From an uncultured Candidatus Saccharibacteria bacterium (GTDB lineage Bacteria; Patescibacteriota; Minisyncoccia; Phycocordibacterales; DATGWK01), in NCBI GenBank assembly GCA_964428845.1, contig CAYRZH010000003.1, positions 25,884 to 89,883 of the forward strand: a stretch of 64,000 nt of DNA. Reading direction: 5' to 3'. Of this stretch, positions 18,624-54,690 are shown in pieces. The stretch's first letter is position 1. The number at the start of each line of letters is the position of its first letter. The notes under the pieces were generated by a model. That model searched no databases and was not told the origin of the DNA. It saw only the letters and a list, made by a program, of their open reading frames with translations. A program made the position numbers and the translations under genes.

Positions 18624-18734
18624 GGGTCTTGAATAGATGCCTCGTCGAGCACGGATAAATTTTTGCTAAAATTTTCCTCGAGCTCGCGCCGTCGCGCTCG
18701 CTAGTCTCGCCTCGGCATCTATTCAAGACCCCCT
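18624..18734. repeat. Hairpin element copy 1: a roughly 110-nt element with 21-nt terminal inverted arms (gggtcttgaatagatgcctcg ... cgaggcatctattcaagaccc) and a conserved GC-rich core
   Basis: Aligns end to end with copies at 26265-26373 and 54584-54690. The arms are reverse complements of each other. Confidence 0.8.
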
Positions 18735-18941: not shown

Positions 18942-19649
18942 CTAGGTGGCTTGAGGGACGGCAACTGGTGTATGAGAACCGACTTGCGACACAGCGAACG
19001 CGAACCCGCGGTCACGAAGCCTCCCGCCGCCAGGCCTGCCGCTGCACGCGTTGAGCCAGCGACCACCGCCGACACGGTCCGCGCAGAGCAAGCGCGGATC
19101 GCCGACGGAGTCGTTGATGGGTTCGTGCATGGCAACGATGTACCACAGACCCATCGCTTCGATCTCCTTGTCCGTGAACTTCTCACGGATGAGGCAGGCC
19201 AGTTCGGCGTTCGGCTTCGAGAGCTTGCGTCTGTCGGCCTCGGCGCGGATCTTCTTCGTGGTCCGGTCGTTGTCCTCGAAGAGCATGCCCTTGAGAACGG
19301 CGACTTCGGTCGTCACGCCGCTCGTCGGCTTGAAGTCAGGGCTTCGGAGCACCTGCTTGGCGTAGTCACCCACACGGAGGCCTCTGCTTTTGAGTCGAGT
19401 GATCCAGGCTTTACCGGTCGTGCCGTCGCTCGTAACCCAGAAGTAGATGACGCCGCCTTCCTCGTGCCAACGCTTGGGGGGGTTGGAGAGCGGGAACGGA
19501 CCACGAATCGCGTCGGCAATTCTCACCTGCTCTACCACAGATGCGCCTCGAAATCTCTGCAGATCCGCTCGAGTGACACCCCTGACATCCAAGATCTCCA
19601 ATGTGGCCATGGCTTCCGAAATAGGTATTTCACTGACAAGGCTCCCCAT
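18942..19649 (-). CDS. High-GC island gene 1: hypothetical protein of an unrecognised family (paralog of 50662-51318 and 26555-27223)
   Basis: About 63% GC against an approximately 40% host. Strong SD (GGAAGGAGAcccaaATG). Shares a 331-bp identical block with 50803-51133. C-terminal motif AMHEPINDS...GGGRWL..C.GRP shared with the two other island genes. Confidence 0.7.
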   Translation of the reverse strand: MGSLVSEIPISEAMATLEILDVRGVTRADLQRFRGASVVEQVRIADAIRGPFPLSNPPKRWHEEGGVIYFWVTSDGTTGKAWITRLKSRGLRVGDYAKQVLRSPDFKPTSGVTTEVAVLKGMLFEDNDRTTKKIRAEADRRKLSKPNAELACLIREKFTDKEIEAMGLWYIVAMHEPINDSVGDPRLLCADRVGGGRWLNACSGRPGGGRLRDRGFAFAVSQVGSHTPVAVPQAT

Positions 19650-19764
19650 TTGGGTCTCCTTCCTTCTTTTGGGCTCTCTTGCTTGCGCAAGCTCGCCGTG
19701 AATCTGATCAGCTAGAGGACCACTACGTCGTGGCCATAGCTATTTAAAAGAACGATTCAGTAGG

Positions 19765-19793
19765 ATTCTACGTCTCCAATAGCTAAACGTCAA
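19765..19793 (-). promoter_or_regulatory. Near-consensus sigma-70 promoter for island gene 1 (TTGACG-N17-TAGAAT)
   Basis: Reverse complement reads ttgacg tttagctattggagacg tagaat. Confidence 0.55.
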
Positions 19794-25043: not shown

Positions 25044-25985
25044 TTATTTCTTAAGCAAGATATTGATAGCTTTTGTAACAATAGGAAGGATATCGTTGTA
25101 GAAGTTCAGATCAAGGATATCAGCCAATTTGAACCATTTGGCGTCATCGAGACCGCCGTTTCCCTCTTCGAGCTTCAGATCTTTAAACTTCGCTTCGGCA
25201 AGAAAATATACAACCTGTTTTTTCTTTTTGCCATTTTCGGGATGATAGGCAATGTATTCGTTTTCGCCCAGTTTCTCCTTGGGGACTACATCTACGCCTA
25301 TCTCTTCTTTGGCTTTTCTTACAATACCATCAGCATACTCTTCTTCTGGGCCAATTTTCCCTTTGGTAAGGGTCCAGTGGCCGAAGACATCGTGGACAAG
25401 TGCAAGATAGATATCTCCCTTGTGGTGGGAGTAAACTACGGCACCACAGAGTTTTTCTACCGGGATCTTGTCTGCGGGGATATCTTTATTTGGCTTTTTT
25501 TTTGAGGTTTCGTTTTTGCCCGGCTCCCCCATTTCTTTGTACACCGCCCCCAAAACCCCGTTTACAAATTTGCTGCTAGTGTCACCGCCAAATGTTTTGG
25601 CTAGTTCGATAGCTTCGTTGATGGCGACTTTTGGTGGTACCTCGTCTCGATTGCCAAAGATGAGCTCGTAGAGGCCAATTCTTAAAATGTTTCTATCGAC
25701 GACAGATATTTTCTCAAGTGGCCAGTCTGGTGCTGCCTTTACGATTATGTTATCGAGATCTTTTTCTTTCTTGAGCACATTTTTCATAAGTGACTCCATA
25801 AACGAAAAATCTCCTATACCAGGAGCAAATTCTTCTGCATTTCTACGGAAAATTTCCATGGCCTCCTTCTCACTCTTTTTTCCAAAGTCTACTTCAAAGA
25901 GTGACTGCACGACTATTGATCTCGATAGGTGTCTGTTTGCCATATTCTCTATTTGCAAGAACTGTTCACCTTTACTATAACCCAA
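25044..25985 (-). CDS. nusB: Fusion protein: NusB antitermination factor (N-terminal) plus NUDIX hydrolase (C-terminal)
   Basis: N-terminal half resembles NusB (LFEVDF..., VDRNILRIGLYELIF). C-terminal half carries a Nudix box GKIGPEEEYADGIVRKAKEEIGV. Confidence 0.7.
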   Translation of the reverse strand: MGYSKGEQFLQIENMANRHLSRSIVVQSLFEVDFGKKSEKEAMEIFRRNAEEFAPGIGDFSFMESLMKNVLKKEKDLDNIIVKAAPDWPLEKISVVDRNILRIGLYELIFGNRDEVPPKVAINEAIELAKTFGGDTSSKFVNGVLGAVYKEMGEPGKNETSKKKPNKDIPADKIPVEKLCGAVVYSHHKGDIYLALVHDVFGHWTLTKGKIGPEEEYADGIVRKAKEEIGVDVVPKEKLGENEYIAYHPENGKKKKQVVYFLAEAKFKDLKLEEGNGGLDDAKWFKLADILDLNFYNDILPIVTKAINILLKK

Positions 25986-26264: not shown

Positions 26265-26373
26265 GGGTTTTGAATAGCATACCTCGTCGAGCACGGATAA
26301 ATTTCTGCTGAAATTTTCCTCGAGCTCGCGCCGTCGCGCTCGCTAGTCTCGCCTCGGCATCTATTCAAAACCC
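26265..26373. repeat. Hairpin element copy 2
   Basis: Full-length alignment to copy 1. The core ctcgtcgagcacggataaattt.tgct.aaattttcctcgagctcgcgccgtcgcgctcgctagtctcgcctcgg is identical except for 2 nt. Lies immediately upstream of the rpmF promoter. Confidence 0.8.
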
Positions 26374-26483: not shown

Positions 26484-26510
26484 ACACCTATGAAAAAGCC
26501 CCGGAGACGC
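26484..26510 (-). terminator. Rho-independent terminator downstream of island gene 2
   Basis: gccccg gagacg cggggc hairpin with an A-run on the plus strand, giving a T-run on the minus strand. Confidence 0.65.
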
Positions 26511-26554
26511 GGGGCTCGAAGAGTCTAAAACGGAAGATGACCAATACTCAAGAA

Positions 26555-27223
26555 CTACTTACGACGGACAAACACCAAGCGGTGGCCAGGACCCCAGACG
26601 CTGAGAGGGCGGCCGTCGCAAGTACGGAGCCACCGCCCACCACAGACGTCGCATCCGACAGAGAACACGTCGAGGTCGCTGTACGAGTCCCAAATGGGAT
26701 GCATCGCGATAGCGACACACTCGTCGTTGGGTTGGTCGATGTACTGCAAGCGCAGTTGCGGACCGGCTTCTGCTGGACAGAGACCAAGTCCGAGCTTGTC
26801 GGCCTCGGCACAGATGTTATAGAAGGCCGTACTGTGCTTGAAGCCGAGTTCAGCTACTGTAACAAGCACGAGGTCGAGTTCTATCGGCTCCTTGCTCACG
26901 ATAAACTCGGGCTTGTCGAGGATGTCGCCCGCCGCCAGGTCGTCGATTTTCATTTTCGCGGACTTGATGGCCCTTCGGAAACCCGCGCCATCCTTGATGC
27001 CGGTGCCGAGCTTGATGGTTTTCCATGTCGACCAGGCCCTAATAGGCTCGGCTCTTGCCCTGCCACCATTGCGGAGAAACTCCGTGAACCGAACCCCCGC
27101 ATTGTGCGGACTGTCGATCAGTGCCTGGACGCCACTTGGGCTAAGCACTTCCCAGTTGGTGTTTGCCCCCAACTTGGCAAGCAACTCGAATCTCTGCTCG
27201 ACGCAGATTGTCTTGGCAGCCAT
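26555..27223 (-). CDS. High-GC island gene 2: hypothetical protein, a divergent paralog of island genes 1 and 3
   Basis: High GC. SD AAAGGAGGtagccaATG. Shared blocks with the island-1/3 proteins: GTGIKDGAG vs DGTTGKAW, ICAEADKLGL vs IRAEADRRKL, AIAMHPIWDS vs IVAMHEPINDS, CGGRWLRTCDGRP vs GGGRWLNACSGRP. Confidence 0.6.
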   Translation of the reverse strand: MAAKTICVEQRFELLAKLGANTNWEVLSPSGVQALIDSPHNAGVRFTEFLRNGGRARAEPIRAWSTWKTIKLGTGIKDGAGFRRAIKSAKMKIDDLAAGDILDKPEFIVSKEPIELDLVLVTVAELGFKHSTAFYNICAEADKLGLGLCPAEAGPQLRLQYIDQPNDECVAIAMHPIWDSYSDLDVFSVGCDVCGGRWLRTCDGRPLSVWGPGHRLVFVRRK

Positions 27224-27302
27224 TGGCTACCTCCTTTTCTGTGCAGCTTACCTCCCTCGCAACATGCGAAGAAAGCTAACCGCCACTCAAAGAACTCTCC
27301 AG

Positions 27303-27331
27303 ATTGTACATTTACTAGCCAGGCTTGTCAA
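27303..27331 (-). promoter_or_regulatory. Consensus sigma-70 promoter for island gene 2 (TTGACA-N17-TACAAT)
   Basis: Reverse complement reads ttgaca agcctggctagtaaatg tacaat. Confidence 0.6.
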
Positions 27332-50454: not shown

Positions 50455-50492
50455 AAAAGAAAAAAGCCCCGCAACCACGCGAGGCCTCCATG
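50455..50492 (-). terminator. Repeat A: terminator-like 38-mer (aaaagaaaaaagccccgcaaccacgcgaggcctccatg), repeated at 51897-51935
   Basis: Minus-strand reading gives an imperfect GC stem followed by T6. A second, 37-bp copy lies at 51897-51935, with a 1-nt indel and a few substitutions. Confidence 0.5.
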
Positions 50493-50585
50493 TTTACGTC
50501 TGGAATACGTTGCGACAATTTGCCGCGAGCAAAGGTCTAAAGTCAAAGGGTTCTACTGCCGATATAGGTATAACTGGTTTTATAT

Positions 50586-50625
50586 AAAAAATTCAGCCCT
50601 GCTCCGACGGATCGGAACAGGGCTA
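50586..50625 (-). terminator. Rho-independent terminator of island gene 3
   Basis: agccctg...cagggct stem and T-run on the minus strand. Confidence 0.65.
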
Positions 50626-50661
50626 AGGGCTAAGGCCAAAGGGACTGAAGTCCCGAGGGTC

Positions 50662-51318
50662 TTAGGATTGAGAACCAACTTGCGGGACAACGAACGCGAA
50701 CCCCCCACCACCATCCCACCTGCGGTCAGGCCCGCCGCCGCGCGCGCGGAGCCAGTCACCACCGTCGCACCGGTCCACGGAGAGCAAGCCCGGAACACCA
50801 CAGGAGTCGTTGATGGGTTCGTGCATGGCAACGATGTACCACAGACCCATCGCTTCGATCTCCTTGTCCGTGAACTTCTCACGGATGAGGCAGGCCAGTT
50901 CGGCGTTCGGCTTCGAGAGCTTGCGTCTGTCGGCCTCGGCGCGGATCTTCTTCGTGGTCCGGTCGTTGTCCTCGAAGAGCATGCCCTTGAGAACGGCGAC
51001 TTCGGTCGTCACGCCGCTCGTCGGCTTGAAGTCAGGGCTTCGGAGCACCTGCTTGGCGTAGTCACCCACACGGAGGCCTCTGCTTTTGAGTCGAGTGATC
51101 CAGGCTTTACCGGTCGTGCCGTCGCTCGTAACCGAGAAGTAGATGACGCCGCCTTCTTCGCGCCACGAACGGGTCGGCTTTGAAACAACCCATTCACCCG
51201 AATTGACGAGTCTGATCGCTTCATTCGGGTCGGTCGAGCCGGTCTGACGCATGATGTTCTTCACCAGTGCGTTCAGCTTGCCGGGTAGCACGTCTGCGAT
51301 TGCGAATTTTGTGCTCAT
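50662..51318 (-). CDS. High-GC island gene 3: hypothetical protein, a close paralog of island gene 1
   Basis: The 331-bp block 50803-51133 is identical to 19108-19438 by manual comparison. SD AAGGAGatacaatcATG. The protein shares EEGGVIYF...GLWYIVAMHEPINDS with island gene 1. Confidence 0.7.
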   Translation of the reverse strand: MSTKFAIADVLPGKLNALVKNIMRQTGSTDPNEAIRLVNSGEWVVSKPTRSWREEGGVIYFSVTSDGTTGKAWITRLKSRGLRVGDYAKQVLRSPDFKPTSGVTTEVAVLKGMLFEDNDRTTKKIRAEADRRKLSKPNAELACLIREKFTDKEIEAMGLWYIVAMHEPINDSCGVPGLLSVDRCDGGDWLRARGGGPDRRWDGGGGFAFVVPQVGSQS

Positions 51319-51470
51319 GATTGTATCTCCTTGGGCTAATTTGCCCGTTTCGTTTTCCTCTAATCCGAGGAGGAACCATGGCCTATGTGGTCATAGCGAG
51401 GAATGGCCTAGTTTTAAGCCACTTTTCGCTATGACCACTTACAAGTAGTTCAATGTTCAGTCTGCGGCTC

Positions 51471-51499
51471 ATTTTACACCCTTTCTTGGTATAAGTCAA
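51471..51499 (-). promoter_or_regulatory. Near-consensus sigma-70 promoter for island gene 3 (TTGACT-N17-TAAAAT)
   Basis: Reverse complement reads ttgact tataccaagaaagggtg taaaat. The 150-nt leader contains the hairpin gtggtcatagcg...cgctatgaccac. Confidence 0.55.
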
Positions 51500-51511
51500 T
51501 ACCTCGTCGTT

Positions 51512-51808
51512 TTATGATTTTTTTAGATATCTAACAAGTTTCTTACCAGTAAAAGGACCTATTGATTCACCTCGAGTATATTCTTCTCTTGCCTCTCGTA
51601 TGATTTTTGCTAGGTATGGAGTTGGCACTAGCTCGTTAGCAGATAGTACTAGTTTCTTCTCCCGAACAAATTGCTTCAGGAAAGCATTGATCGCGGTGCT
51701 CAATGGTACACCAAGCTCTTCGGCTGTTTCCTTGGCCGCCTTTTTTAAATCCTTCTCCGTTTTTATATTTAATATTGTTTTGGTATTCATATACCAAAGT
51801 ATATACAA
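51512..51808 (-). CDS. Ribbon-helix-helix RelB/DinJ-family antitoxin-like protein, with no RelE-like toxin partner adjacent
   Basis: Length and the TAINAFLKQFVREKKLVL pattern match DinJ/RelB antitoxins. The downstream gene on the same strand is island gene 3. Confidence 0.55.
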   Translation of the reverse strand: MYILWYMNTKTILNIKTEKDLKKAAKETAEELGVPLSTAINAFLKQFVREKKLVLSANELVPTPYLAKIIREAREEYTRGESIGPFTGKKLVRYLKKS

Positions 51809-51838
51809 TGGTATATTTAAGTCAATACTGCCTTACTT

Positions 51839-51881
51839 CCTCCCCACCACCTTCAAAACAGCTTTCTTTATAACTTCTACT
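51839..51881. repeat. Repeat B: a 43-bp duplicate of the 3' coding end of the transketolase C-subunit gene (true copy at 53603-53645)
   Basis: tccccaccaccttcaaaacagct(t/c)tctttata(a/g)cttctactc. The minus-strand translation ...VEVIKKAVLKVVGRK* mirrors the tkt C-terminus ...VEAIKRAVLKVVGRK*. Confidence 0.8.
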
Positions 51882-51936
51882 CTCTCGAAAAAAATTGAAA
51901 AGAAAAAGCCCCGCACCGCGCGAGGCCTCCATGCTA

Positions 51937-52650
51937 TCAACTCAACGATTCGCTTAGACCTACCCCCATCTCGCTGTAGAACTCATCAAGAGGAGCTTTG
52001 ATCAATCCTAGTTGCTTGAGGGTAAAGTATTTCCCCTTTAGTGTCTCGACTTCTCTTTTCACCTGCCCCTCATCCAGAGTCTCGCCCTCGCCCAGCTCAC
52101 CTTTCAACTGCAGGATTTTGACGACTTGCTGAGCCATAATCTCATTCGCAATACCCTCTAGCTCGGCAAGGTTTAGCCCACAGAGATCTTTCAGATCAGT
52201 GACACCTGTTTCCCTGATAAAGTCCGATAAACAAACTCGGAATAGGTAGAACTTCGGAGATATGAGGTTGGTTAGAAACCTCCCAACCGCAGAGAGGACC
52301 ATTCCAAAAACACAGAGAACAAGGCCGATTTCTATGGCGATCGATATCCACATAGACACGACGGCCTGACACAGAGCCAATAAGGTATTGGGGGTTATGA
52401 AGACAGTGCTCAACAGAAGGGTAAGAAAACAAAACCCCACTAATAGGGCCAGAGCCAGTATAAGATACAGATAGCCCCACATCACACCCTCGATGAACCG
52501 TATCGCCCTCGCGACTCTTAGAAAATCCTTTCCAGTTCTTTCTCTCCATAGGTTGAGAATAGCTTCTGGAATTTGCTTTCTCTTTACGACCACCACCCAA
52601 TCCTTCGTACTCCAGCCATGGATACTATTCAGTTTACGGACAGTGCTCAT
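51937..52650 (-). CDS. Hypothetical integral membrane protein (3 TM plus a C-terminal coiled/acidic cytoplasmic domain). Start chosen at MSTVRKLNS, which has an SD ACAGGAGAcagagaATG.
   Basis: TM segments (WGYLYLILALALLVGFCFLTLLL, LLALCQAVVSMWISIAIEIGLVLCVFGMVL). The track ORF extends to 52761, but the promoter at 52752-52785 argues for the shorter start. Confidence 0.45.
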   Translation of the reverse strand: MSTVRKLNSIHGWSTKDWVVVVKRKQIPEAILNLWRERTGKDFLRVARAIRFIEGVMWGYLYLILALALLVGFCFLTLLLSTVFITPNTLLALCQAVVSMWISIAIEIGLVLCVFGMVLSAVGRFLTNLISPKFYLFRVCLSDFIRETGVTDLKDLCGLNLAELEGIANEIMAQQVVKILQLKGELGEGETLDEGQVKREVETLKGKYFTLKQLGLIKAPLDEFYSEMGVGLSESLS

Positions 52651-52751
52651 TCTCTGTCTCCTGTGTTTTATTAGAAAATGGCCCTGTTTCGCACATTTTC
52701 TACCAGTTATCGATTCTTTTTGCCCGCTACCAAAGAACATCTTCCCGCGAG

Positions 52752-52785
52752 AACAATACAACTTTTTAGTACTGAGTCAATCACG
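52752..52785 (-). promoter_or_regulatory. Sigma-70-like promoter (TTGACT-N16-TATTGT)
   Basis: Reverse complement reads ttgact cagtactaaaaagttg tattgt. Confidence 0.45.
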
Positions 52786-52821
52786 CCATAGTTACAAGAT
52801 GATCTCGCAGGGCAAAGGAAA

Positions 52822-52850
52822 AGCCCGCGACGATTGTCGCGGGCTTTGAA
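52822..52850 (-). terminator. Rho-independent terminator of the 52861-53397 gene
   Basis: Perfect 10-bp stem agcccgcgac/gtcgcgggct followed by TTTTCCTTT on the minus strand. Confidence 0.7.
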
Positions 52851-52860
52851 AACTTGAAAT

Positions 52861-53397
52861 TCAACTTGCGAGAACCGGAGTGGGGGCAGAGGCGGTCCAC
52901 TGTCCTTCCGTGCGACCTTCTAGATAAGCCTGATCGCAGAAAGGATCCCAATGCTCATCCCAGGAGAGACGGAGAACGAACTCCCCAATGCCATCCTGGA
53001 AGATGGTACCCCAGAAGCAGAGATCGGTCCTTTTCCCAAGACGATCTCTCTTCCATCTTGCGGGAATGAGTTTGGGGTTCTGCTTCAGAACAGAGAGGAC
53101 CGTGGCAGGCAAAGCCTTACCCCTGATCTGGAAACGGAACTTGGAACCAGGGACCGCCTTACCCGCCAACTGGTCGGGAGAGAGGAAGAGTTCGATCTTC
53201 TCACCGTTGGCAAAAAGATCGTCTCCCACACGGGTGAGCTTGAGCTCTCCCATGTCAGTGTGCTGCTTGATCGACCAGCCGTCTTCGAGCTGTGCCGGAT
53301 CGAGGTGACGTGGAACGTCGAACTCGGTCGGCAGTCCAACGTCGAGCCCCAGCTCATTGTTATTGCCAGCCATTTGAGTCTCCTTTCTGGTTTGCAA
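52861..53397 (-). CDS. High-GC hypothetical protein (178 aa), unrelated in sequence to island genes 1-3
   Basis: High GC against the local background. Minus-strand ORF with a strong terminator. No recognisable domain. Confidence 0.45.
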   Translation of the reverse strand: MQTRKETQMAGNNNELGLDVGLPTEFDVPRHLDPAQLEDGWSIKQHTDMGELKLTRVGDDLFANGEKIELFLSPDQLAGKAVPGSKFRFQIRGKALPATVLSVLKQNPKLIPARWKRDRLGKRTDLCFWGTIFQDGIGEFVLRLSWDEHWDPFCDQAYLEGRTEGQWTASAPTPVLAS

Positions 53398-53595
53398 CAG
53401 CGTTCTTTCGAACTGCGTTGCTTTTACTCTGTTTTGCTTACCACATTGGTTTGCCCCAGCATAGAAAGCCCTTTTGGGCCCTCTACGCTAAGGCAAACTC
53501 GCAAGTTTGTTAACGTGCTATCTGCGTATATTATACCACCATTCAAATAATAAGTCAAGCTAATCTGTTAGGTAACACACTCCCAAATTAATAGC

Positions 53596-54573
53596 CTATT
53601 TTCTCCCCACCACCTTCAAAACAGCTCTCTTTATAGCTTCTACTCCCATGCCGTAATGCTCGATGAGCTCGTCTGGCTTGCCTGATTGACCAAACTCGTC
53701 TTTTACGCCGAGAAATTCTATTGGTACTGGAAAATTTGAGGCTAGGCATTCTGCAACGGCGCTACCCATTCCACCCGCGATCTGATGTTCCTCTAGGGTC
53801 ACTATTGCGCCAGTTTCTTTGGCCGCATCTACAATAGCTTTCTCGTCGAGCGGTTTTATGGTTGCCAGATTTATAACATTCACATTTGTGCCAGCGGTTT
53901 CAAGATCGTGCGCCGCCTGCATGGCTCGGTAGACAAGCGCGCCGGTTGCGATGATTGTGGCGACCGGCGTATTCTTCGGTTCAAAAAATGTTGCCGCCTT
54001 CCCTATTTCAAAAGGAGTATCTTCGGTTGTGATAACTGGAGTCTTTTCTCGTCCAAGACGAATGTAAACCGGAGTATCTGTCTTTGCGGCCGCGATCGTA
54101 GCTTTGCGCGCTTCGATGGCGTCGCAGGGTGAGATCACCACCATACGCGGGATGACTCGCATGATAGCAATGTCCTCGATCGCTTGATGTGTGCCGCCGT
54201 CGGGCCCTACAGAAATACCCGCATGCGACCCGATGATCTTCACAGGACGATCGTTGTAGCAAATAGTGGTCCGGATTTGTTCCCAGTTTCTTCCTGGAGA
54301 AAACATAGCGTAAGAAGTAATGAAAGGAATTTTGCCCATGGCCGCCATACCGGAGCCAACTCCAGCAAGATTTTGCTCGGCAACTCCGATCTGCACAAAT
54401 CTTTCCGGAAATTTTTTGGCAAAAAGGTGGGCTTGGGCAGACTCTGTAAGGTCGGCACAGAGAGCTACCACTCGCGAGTCGGCTTCACCAGCAGCTAAAA
54501 GCCCTTCGCCATATCCTTTTCGGATCGGCACCTGCTCGATGTCAGCGGAAAAAAGTTTGGGGTTCAGGTTCAT
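53596..54573 (-). CDS. tkt: Transketolase C-terminal section (pyrimidine-binding and C-terminal domains) of a split transketolase
   Basis: 325 aa matching the transketolase C-half (GVAEQNLAGVGSGMAAMG, GPDGGTHQAIEDIAIMR). Confidence 0.85.
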   Translation of the reverse strand: MNLNPKLFSADIEQVPIRKGYGEGLLAAGEADSRVVALCADLTESAQAHLFAKKFPERFVQIGVAEQNLAGVGSGMAAMGKIPFITSYAMFSPGRNWEQIRTTICYNDRPVKIIGSHAGISVGPDGGTHQAIEDIAIMRVIPRMVVISPCDAIEARKATIAAAKTDTPVYIRLGREKTPVITTEDTPFEIGKAATFFEPKNTPVATIIATGALVYRAMQAAHDLETAGTNVNVINLATIKPLDEKAIVDAAKETGAIVTLEEHQIAGGMGSAVAECLASNFPVPIEFLGVKDEFGQSGKPDELIEHYGMGVEAIKRAVLKVVGRK

Positions 54574-54583
54574 TATGGATATG

Positions 54584-54690
54584 GAGTTTAAATAAATACC
54601 TCGTCTCGCACGATAAAATTCTCGCTGAAATTTTCCTCGTGCTCGCGCCGTCGCGCTCGCAAGGCTTCACCTCGGTACTTATTTAAACTC
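54584..54690. repeat. Hairpin element copy 3
   Basis: Arms ggagtttaaataaatacctcg / cgaggtacttatttaaactcc pair perfectly. They differ from copies 1 and 2 at several positions on both arms simultaneously. Core ...aaattttcctcg.gctcgcgccgtcgcgctcgc is conserved. Lies 11 nt upstream of the tkt C-section ATG. Confidence 0.75.

Follow-up and report, generated by a model that had tools for sequence, protein, structure and literature searches.

Which function can be assigned to three GC-rich genes, devoid of any recognizable domain, that are scattered over a segment of much lower GC content in the genome of a member of the Patescibacteria, or candidate phyla radiation (CPR)? The window, as we call the whole stretch analyzed, comprises 64,000 nucleotides from an uncultured Candidatus Saccharibacteria bacterium (contig CAYRZH010000003.1, forward-strand positions 25,884 to 89,883; positions below count from the first letter of the window). 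We named the three genes A, B, and C. According to the sequence evidence, they are very probably target genes, coding for the variable proteins, of a lineage of diversity-generating retroelements (DGRs) that is confined to Patescibacteria. B is a sister subtype with the same signature as A and C. The features on which this assignment rests are as follows.

18942-19649, minus strand: gene A, 235 aa; predicted A-subtype DGR-type variable protein with its own N-terminus of ~64 aa, a C-type lectin (CLec) scaffold, and a C-terminal variable repeat (VR)
26555-27223, minus strand: gene B, 222 aa; predicted B-subtype DGR-type variable protein; 290 homologs
50662-51318, minus strand: gene C, 218 aa; predicted A-subtype DGR-type variable protein; N-terminal module unlike that of A and common to the related locus L001
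19437-19107 = 51133-50803, minus strand: scaffold block of 331 nt, 100% DNA identity between A and C (ungapped comparison)
18984-19109, minus strand: VR_A, variable repeat of A, ending at the ...TCGCAA junction
26559-26689, minus strand: VR_B, VR-equivalent stretch of B, depleted in adenine and aligning with the template repeat (TR) of the related locus L007
50680-50805, minus strand: VR_C, variable repeat of C, 6% A

Composition and variable 3' ends of genes A, B, and C

A sequence-only reading of the window had described three minus-strand genes of high GC content, and open reading frames (ORFs) were found at precisely these positions. The contrast it had noticed is real: A, B, and C contain 61.2%, 58.4%, and 60.4% GC, respectively, and the window minus these loci 44.3%, a backbone richer in GC than the ~40% first assumed. 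Ten large host genes have a GC content of 43.8%, with a GC content at third codon positions (GC3) of 0.44. Among windows of 700 nt (mean 0.448, SD 0.04), the 25 richest in GC all (25/25) lie inside loci A, B, and C. The genes are thus compositionally foreign to the rest of the window, in answer to the comparison with the rest of the genome proposed in the same reading. Substitutions between C and 11 homologs are distributed over codon positions 1:2:3 as 110:116:310 in the minus-strand frame, which therefore is coding; judging from this pattern, the long plus-strand ORFs of the three genes are by-products of high GC.

The three genes form one paralogous family, as had been claimed: A and B align significantly in a formal pairwise comparison (BLASTP E = 3e-8, 31% identity across 129 aa), and A and C are 77% identical. 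The qualification of these paralogs as divergent is too simple for A and C, which carry the 331-nt block of perfect DNA identity. The family could indeed not be assigned by profile, a Pfam search with the three proteins returning zero matches.

Despite the identical 331-nt scaffold, the first ~64 codons and the leaders of A and C are unrelated. This pattern suggests a recent gene conversion or recombination between the paralogs. Right after the block, 30 out of 99 nt differ between A and C, 25 of these 30 differences falling on codon positions 1 and 2; the similarity resumes for ~35 nt past this stretch, until ...TCGCAAGTCGGTTCTCA. Adenine occupies only 1 of the 69 positions shared by A and C in the variable stretch, versus 25% A in the identical block (binomial P = 5e-8). 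The two VRs diverged after, or independently of, the event that made the upstream 331 nt identical. More generally, adenine makes up 7–10% of the terminal ~120 nt in A, B, and C, versus 17–32% elsewhere; for gene B alone, the values are 7–10% in the final 120 nt and 18–27% in the remainder. In the alignment of A-type proteins, the entropy is near zero over the scaffold but rises sharply at individual positions from 182 to 214. Hypervariability is thus confined to the C-terminal repeat, which is the part depleted in adenine, and the signature expected of the products of DGR adenine mutagenesis is present in all three C-termini.

At the other end, the N-terminal ~60 aa of the A-type proteins exist in at least three unrelated versions (that of A, that of C and L001, and that of L003 and L005) joined to one scaffold (window positions 19438–19649 vs. 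51134–51318). Intragenic module swapping has been proposed for DGR targets (Roux et al. 2021, PMC8144416), and these versions are a concrete case of it.

Retroelements beside the relatives and rival explanations

We identified 1,775 homologs of A, ~75–80% identical over the C-terminal ~180 aa, all unannotated and without Pfam domain, in Wolfe-, Uhr-, Vogel-, Woese-, and Niyogibacteria as well as Minisyncoccota. The 290 homologs of B are more divergent. Our survey of gene surroundings covered 80 metagenomic loci, ~37 of which have at least 1.5 kb of downstream sequence. In L001, the last 134 nt of the homolog are repeated 560 nt downstream, forming a TR, and a reverse transcriptase (RT) gene of the RVT_1 type follows; 18 of the 20 TR/VR mismatches replace a TR adenine by another nucleotide. 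Between this TR and the RT gene, a minus-strand ORF of 128 aa gives a weak, full-length match to bAvd. In L005, the closest relative of A, all mismatches (17/17) are adenine-derived. The B-type homolog of L007 similarly shows 17/17 mismatches at TR adenines, and in both L007 and L008 the B homolog precedes a TR, a bAvd gene (PF22296), and an RVT_1 gene. About 28 further loci contain a TR with mismatches mostly originating from adenines. Homologs of the window genes therefore adjoin a TR with adenine-specific mismatches and a DGR-type RT in L001, L005, and L007, and complete cassettes made of target, TR, avd, and RT exist in sister genomes. Overall, ~17 of the ~37 loci have a TR 330–470 nt past the stop codon and/or an RT gene; ~20 have neither RT nor TR within ~5 kb, so orphan or remote copies are common. 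On one metagenomic contig (L081, 774–6114), an A-type gene and argS are followed by a B-like target together with avd and RT. A single DGR can accordingly have both subtypes around it, as may be the case for A/C and B in this genome.

The VRs of the window can be compared with these templates. VR_A differs from the TRs of L005, L043, and L032, a type frequent among sister genomes, at 21 template adenines and at 3 other positions. VR_B aligns codon for codon with the B-type TR of L007, with non-Asn residues at the AAC codons of the template.

A predicted protein model (pLDDT 77.8), in which the VR makes up the C-terminal strands, resembles CLec domains of known structure; its matches agree in kind and lend modest support to a C-type lectin fold, that is, a binding fold. 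The matches are lectin-like binding domains, among them FGE/EgtB-type enzymes built on the same fold. The A, B, and C proteins, of ~220 aa, have no signal peptide or lipobox visible by eye and are apparently cytoplasmic.

Several observations weigh against the assignment to a DGR. The top 50 Foldseek matches of the model, a check recommended beforehand, are all C-type lectins, and none is significant (E 0.3–1). Within the 64-kb window, a degenerate pattern for a TR copy returned only the two VRs. An RT was detected there neither by a motif scan (no ORF with a YxDD context) nor by tblastn with the RT of L001 (best E = 1.9), and the window thus lacks the pair of DGR-type RT and Avd. CPR DGRs have been reported with mostly one adjacent target, and the window contains three to four dispersed copies. 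VR_C shows 23 differences at adenine sites and 16 elsewhere when compared with the TR type that fits VR_A, and it differs from every sampled TR at 16 or more non-adenine positions. As VR_A fits a sampled TR type and VR_C does not, the two were probably written from different templates, no single sampled type fitting both; a template common to A and C is disfavored by the 16 non-adenine differences of VR_C. Finally, A retains the junction and lacks the conserved stop codon and the hairpin that follows the VR in C. Its homology to other family members stops at 18972, right after GGTTCTCA, which explains the missing stop and hairpin and makes the ORF 13 codons longer. For this organism, a DGR, and all the more an active one, is putative. 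In a genome collection that did not contain the source metagenome-assembled genome, a TR pattern allowing the shared base or A at each position matched only the VR of L003, at a chunk edge.

These observations would be accommodated if A, B, and C were fossil targets in a genome without matching RT and TR, which were lost, or never present if the cassettes arrived diversified; the VRs would then be frozen and the products fixed binding proteins. We regard this as possible and rather doubtful. The lack of RT and TR in 64 kb, the ~20 of ~37 related loci in the same situation, the loss of the native stop codon and post-VR hairpin in A, and the two templates implied by VR_A and VR_C all point in this direction. 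However, perfect identity over 331 nt beside a VR that is 30% divergent implies either rewriting of the VR or recombination confined to the scaffold, recent on the scale of neutral drift; the ORFs, the promoters, and the hairpin of C are intact, active DGRs with remote targets are well documented, and only 64 kb of the genome, part of a 96.8-kb contig, are in view. Ordinary divergence of paralogs, by point mutation under diversifying selection or by recombination of alleles and without any retroelement, seems very unlikely. Recombination has clearly occurred, as shown by an identical scaffold behind unrelated N-termini and leaders, and the VR_C differences located off the adenines of any sampled TR could be taken in its favor. 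Neither mutation nor selection explains that adenine is kept at 1/69 shared positions (P = 5e-8), and the variable codons coincide with AAC and AAT codons of the TRs in sister genomes.

The sequence-only reading had proposed a small thiol-dependent enzyme on the basis of a Cys...His...Asp arrangement, and Cys152, His175, and Asp180 are indeed conserved inside the A-subtype. They fail across the family: 43 of 44 B-type members have a proline at position 152, a deletion has removed His175 from the B-type, and Asp180 varies. The C-terminal GG.WL..C.GRP motif, listed as a block of an unassigned family, corresponds to the invariant framework of the VR (W198, L199, P206), i.e., the scaffold of a hypervariable DGR repeat, and the fold matches are lectin-like binding domains. 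We consider such an enzyme extremely improbable. Lastly, GC-rich islands of AT-rich genomes frequently correspond to structured RNAs, and long ORFs exist here on both strands, as would be expected of non-coding RNAs or mobile-element remnants whose ORFs are artifacts. The excess of third-position substitutions (110:116:310), the thousands of length-conserved protein homologs, the reasonably confident fold (pLDDT 77.8), and the absence of an Rfam match leave this explanation practically no credit.

We therefore return to A, B, and C as DGR targets. Each combines a variable N-terminal module of ~60 aa, a conserved CLec scaffold, and a C-terminal VR of ~125 nt. Complete cassettes are ordered as target gene, TR 330–470 nt downstream, avd on the opposite strand, and RT. 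In such a cassette, reverse transcription of the TR RNA inserts random nucleotides opposite adenines, and the resulting cDNA takes the place of the VR up to the ...CGCAA junction. About 19 codons of the binding face are recoded in this way and the scaffold residues W198, L199, P206, and F218 kept, which would give binding modules of reprogrammed specificity. No RT or TR lies in the 64-kb window, which makes the three genes either remote targets or orphans; an RT and a TR elsewhere in the genome may act in trans on the dispersed copies. By analogy with known elements, C, whose post-VR hairpin is intact, and perhaps B would be competent targets, and A would be a recombinant, possibly frozen copy that lost its native 3' end. 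Transcription of each gene would start at a strong promoter of its own and pass through a structured leader able to mask the Shine-Dalgarno (SD) sequence.

Expression signals, leader RNAs, and neighboring elements

The signals predicted around the three genes are the following.

19793-19765, minus strand: promoter-like site of A, TTGACG-17-TAGAAT (promoter scan)
19650-19793, minus strand: promoter-like site and leader of A; leader of 115 nt, not the canonical leader RNA
27331-27303, minus strand: promoter-like site of B, TTGACA-17-TACAAT (promoter scan)
27224-27331, minus strand: promoter-like site and leader of B; structured leader of 80 nt
51499-51471, minus strand: promoter-like site of C, TTGACT-17-TAAAAT (promoter scan)
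51316-51499, minus strand: promoter-like site and canonical leader of C; leader RNA at 51464-51316, ~150 nt
18912-18887, minus strand: terminator-like hairpin of A (scan call)
50626-50593, minus strand: terminator-like hairpin of C (scan call)
50641-50654, minus strand: post-VR hairpin of C, GGGAC-TTCA-GTCCC, right after the stop codon; kept in L001 and L005, absent from A

Near-consensus sigma-70 promoters had been claimed for each gene, and the hexamers are present as quoted, matching the consensus at 10–11 of 12 positions; shuffled sequences yield 0.5–0.8 such sites per region. An AGGAG-type SD also precedes A, B, and C, as described, embedded in a structured leader of 80–150 nt. The claim of a terminator for each gene applies to A and C; for B, we saw by eye a weaker hairpin near 26493–26517, which the scan did not call. 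The view of the genes as independently transcribed modules was well founded: the unit formed by promoter, leader, gene, hairpin, and terminator is kept in other genomes, in unrelated neighborhoods.

The structure of the canonical leader, that of C, consists of an outer stem of 12 bp, an inner hairpin, and two further, small hairpins; in addition, a segment UUCC is predicted to pair with the SD. In an alignment of 33 loci, 98% of the cells are paired, versus 35–51% when the 3' partner is slid, and double compensatory changes affect 8 pairs (32 cells), a value reached in 0 of 500 shuffles. The SD-pairing helix is conserved, without covariation support. No Rfam family matched the leader at the gathering threshold or at E ≤ 1. 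In the window, the covariance model built for this leader (R1) recognizes C (163 bits) and, partially, a fourth gene named D (24.8 bits), and nothing else; the leader of A in particular gives no match. Elsewhere, the model detects such leaders upstream of ~79 related genes, one B-type gene included, and also before D-type genes in L003 and L089; about 80 relatives of C carry one (loci L001, L003, L005, L007, and L009–L089). The leaders of A (fold z = −2.9) and B (fold z = −4.9) differ in sequence and have a 5' GUUCUUU segment in common. In A, the predicted partner of this GUUCUUU is the purine tract at the SD; in B, UUCUUU would pair with the AAAGGA of the SD. Because a structured leader can mask the SD, expression of A, B, and C is probably regulated and not simply maximal. 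The expression signals described as optimised in the sequence-only reading are therefore real as far as promoters and SDs are concerned, but their leaders suggest regulation.

At its 3' end, C retains the ...CGCAA junction, the conserved stop codon, the hairpin, and the terminator, the last three being common to L001 and L005. In B, the junction reads CGTAAG, and the only hairpin lies at a distance. In the Bordetella phage BPP-1 DGR, a hairpin just 3' of the VR is required for efficient homing (PMC3240598); owing to this analogy, the hairpin of C is a candidate DGR target-recognition hairpin, and such 3' elements might be required for homing in this lineage.

Two queries against the viral contigs of IMG/VR retrieved no relatives, and the three genes have housekeeping neighbors, so the features of a phage-borne DGR are missing. 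A lies between the genes for RNase R and S16-TrmD, B between those for RNase HII and L32-NusB, and C between a RelB-like gene and a PfkB kinase gene. Several other family members also adjoin translation genes (S16, L32, EF-G/EF-Tu, secE-nusG-L11), and ribosomal protein genes inside CPR DGRs have been noted (Wu et al. 2018, PMC5758913). In L004 (2567–4249), fusA and tuf flank an orphan copy of the B-type, and the ~1 kb that follows this copy contains neither genes nor a TR.

Gene D, which was not listed in the sequence-only reading, has a layout like that of A, B, and C.

52861-53373, minus strand: gene D, 170 aa, 56% GC, CLec-type predicted fold
52861-53558, minus strand: unit of gene D, with promoter TTGACT-17-TATAAT (53558-53530), leader (53524-53398), and terminator

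D has 519 remote relatives. Its fold is of the same kind as that of A, B, and C, and sequence homology to them is undetectable (hhalign probability 0.3%). D-type genes end in GTTCTCGCAAGTT(A/G)(G/A), and the word GTTCTCGCAAGT at this 3' end also marks the TR/VR junction in the A- and B-types, being read in three different frames. Other matches to TTCTCGCAA in the loci are attributable to chance. The common 3' word suggests that D-type genes could be DGR targets; however, neither TR nor RT was found beside the D-type genes of L089 and L092, and the C-terminus of D shows no adenine depletion.

We also observed repeats in the window. An element of ~105 nt occurs in three copies (18637–18731, 26279–26373, and 54596–54690) and folds into a long hairpin of very high stability (z −6 to −8), in whose outer stem the copies differ by compensatory changes; Rfam returned no match at the gathering threshold. 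Two copies directly follow A and B and shortly precede rpsP and rpmF; the third is located upstream of a transketolase gene. It may be a repeat resembling miniature inverted-repeat transposable elements or repetitive extragenic palindromes, or an RNA. Nested direct repeats surround C and D (50457–53645). A 49-nt stretch matching the 3' end of the transketolase gene (53597–53645) is found again at 51834–51882, with a spacing of 1,763 nt, the two copies flanking D and a gene for a 274-aa membrane protein. A 36-nt terminator sequence (51898–51933) recurs at 50457–50492, with a spacing of 1,441 nt, on both sides of the RelB-like gene and C. These nested repeats look like scars of serial insertion or duplication. 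We searched for direct repeats of this kind flanking A and B and found none.

Evolution of the target cassette and comparison with known systems

In most related loci, the gene has 54–63% GC and its flanks 31–53%; related genes of only 41–51% GC still exceed their flanks by 1–13 points. The excess resides at synonymous sites of the target gene (GC3 0.69–0.81), while the cognate RT gene, ~1 kb away, is host-like (36–48% GC, GC3 0.32–0.61). For the same pairs among ten loci (L001, L012, L029, L030, L032, L049, L057, L060, L062, and L068), the median DNA identity is 89% for the target scaffold versus 67% for the RT gene (70% for the RT protein). The earlier proposal of a horizontal acquisition is thus right in that the genes are compositionally foreign, but the excess concerns the target gene only. 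Recent horizontal transfer of a whole DGR is rejected as the cause of the high GC by the host-like GC of the RT genes, and together with the gap in identity between target and RT this makes recent import of the element an insufficient explanation. Either the target cassette moves or is homogenized independently of the RT, or it is under constraint at the nucleotide level. GC-biased gene conversion among paralogs is one candidate mechanism for the GC excess.

Tentatively, one may go further and imagine that the promoter-leader-CLec-hairpin-terminator cassette is a unit exchanged or homogenized among Patescibacteria independently of the RT, and that the leader is a new class of cis-regulatory RNA co-regulating at least three CLec families (A-, B-, and D-type), a proposal to which we lean less than halfway. 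If it were true, the cassette as a unit would explain both the GC3 of 0.7–0.8 and the ~89% identity against ~67% for the RT, the leader might act as a riboswitch or by binding either a protein or the RT, and CPR bacteria would possess a regulon of retroelement-diversified binding proteins.

The assignment has several consequences. About 2,000 "hypothetical" GC-rich CPR homologs become recognizable as DGR variable proteins, and a single CPR genome can hold several dispersed targets of two subtypes. The leader RNA, which has no Rfam counterpart, could make the regulation of DGR targets testable, and the target-specific anomaly in composition and conservation suggests that target cassettes undergo gene conversion or move independently. 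CPR bacteria are thought to live attached to hosts; programmable binding proteins are therefore prime candidates for factors of interaction with hosts or phages. In the literature that we read, we found no description of a target-specific GC3 excess, of hyperconservation of target DNA relative to the RT, or of a leader RNA.

The BPP-1 Mtd DGR (1yu0; PMC3240598) provides the template of TR-to-VR mutagenic homing, with the VR at the 3' end of the gene as in the window. A GC-rich hairpin is likewise located just downstream of the VR, after C and in L001 and L005. Unlike in BPP-1, the copies are chromosomal, in housekeeping neighborhoods and without relatives on viral contigs; the hairpin loop is TTCA or TTTA instead of GRNA; and no BPP-1-type initiation of mutagenic homing (IMH) sequence, which would have a (GC)14 element, is apparent, the homology of TR and VR simply stopping at ...CGCAA. 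The RTs of the Treponema denticola TvpA DGR (2y3c) and of Trichodesmium (PMC8867640) serve several remote or non-adjacent targets, which resembles the trans-targeting that we infer here. TvpA itself, in contrast, is a lipoprotein of the cell surface whose FGE-type CLec domain has 277 aa, whereas the proteins described here have ~220 aa, and sequence identity is 8%.

The leaders resemble those that sequester the SD, such as the expression platforms of riboswitches or RNA thermometers, by a conserved multi-helix 5' structure, covariation, and predicted SD pairing. They differ in that no Rfam family matches at E ≤ 1 and in that the SD helix lacks covariation.

The closest parallel is with the cellular DGRs of CPR bacteria. 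These were described in Patescibacteria by Paul et al. 2017, as cited in PMC8867640, and a CPR-restricted clade of cellular DGRs (clade 2), with targets devoid of recognizable domains, was defined by Roux et al. (2021; PMC8144416). Wu et al. (2018; PMC5758913) described a "CPR set" and documented non-adjacent and remote targets; one of their unassigned VR classes, UVR1–6, may correspond to the VR class found here. The common traits are the host group, the small targets without Pfam or transmembrane domains, the position of the VR at the extreme C-terminus, the adenine-specific TR/VR mismatches, and the RVT_1 RT and Avd of related loci (L001, L005, L007, and others). The lack of an apparent signal peptide in A, B, and C also agrees with the absence of membrane domains from CPR targets (Roux et al. 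2021). As CPR-specific DGRs with small domain-less targets are already established, the three genes add members to them and not a new enzyme family; what goes beyond the systems that we found described, besides the target-specific anomaly and the leader RNA, is the presence of multiple scattered targets, belonging to two or three subtypes, within a single segment of a CPR genome.

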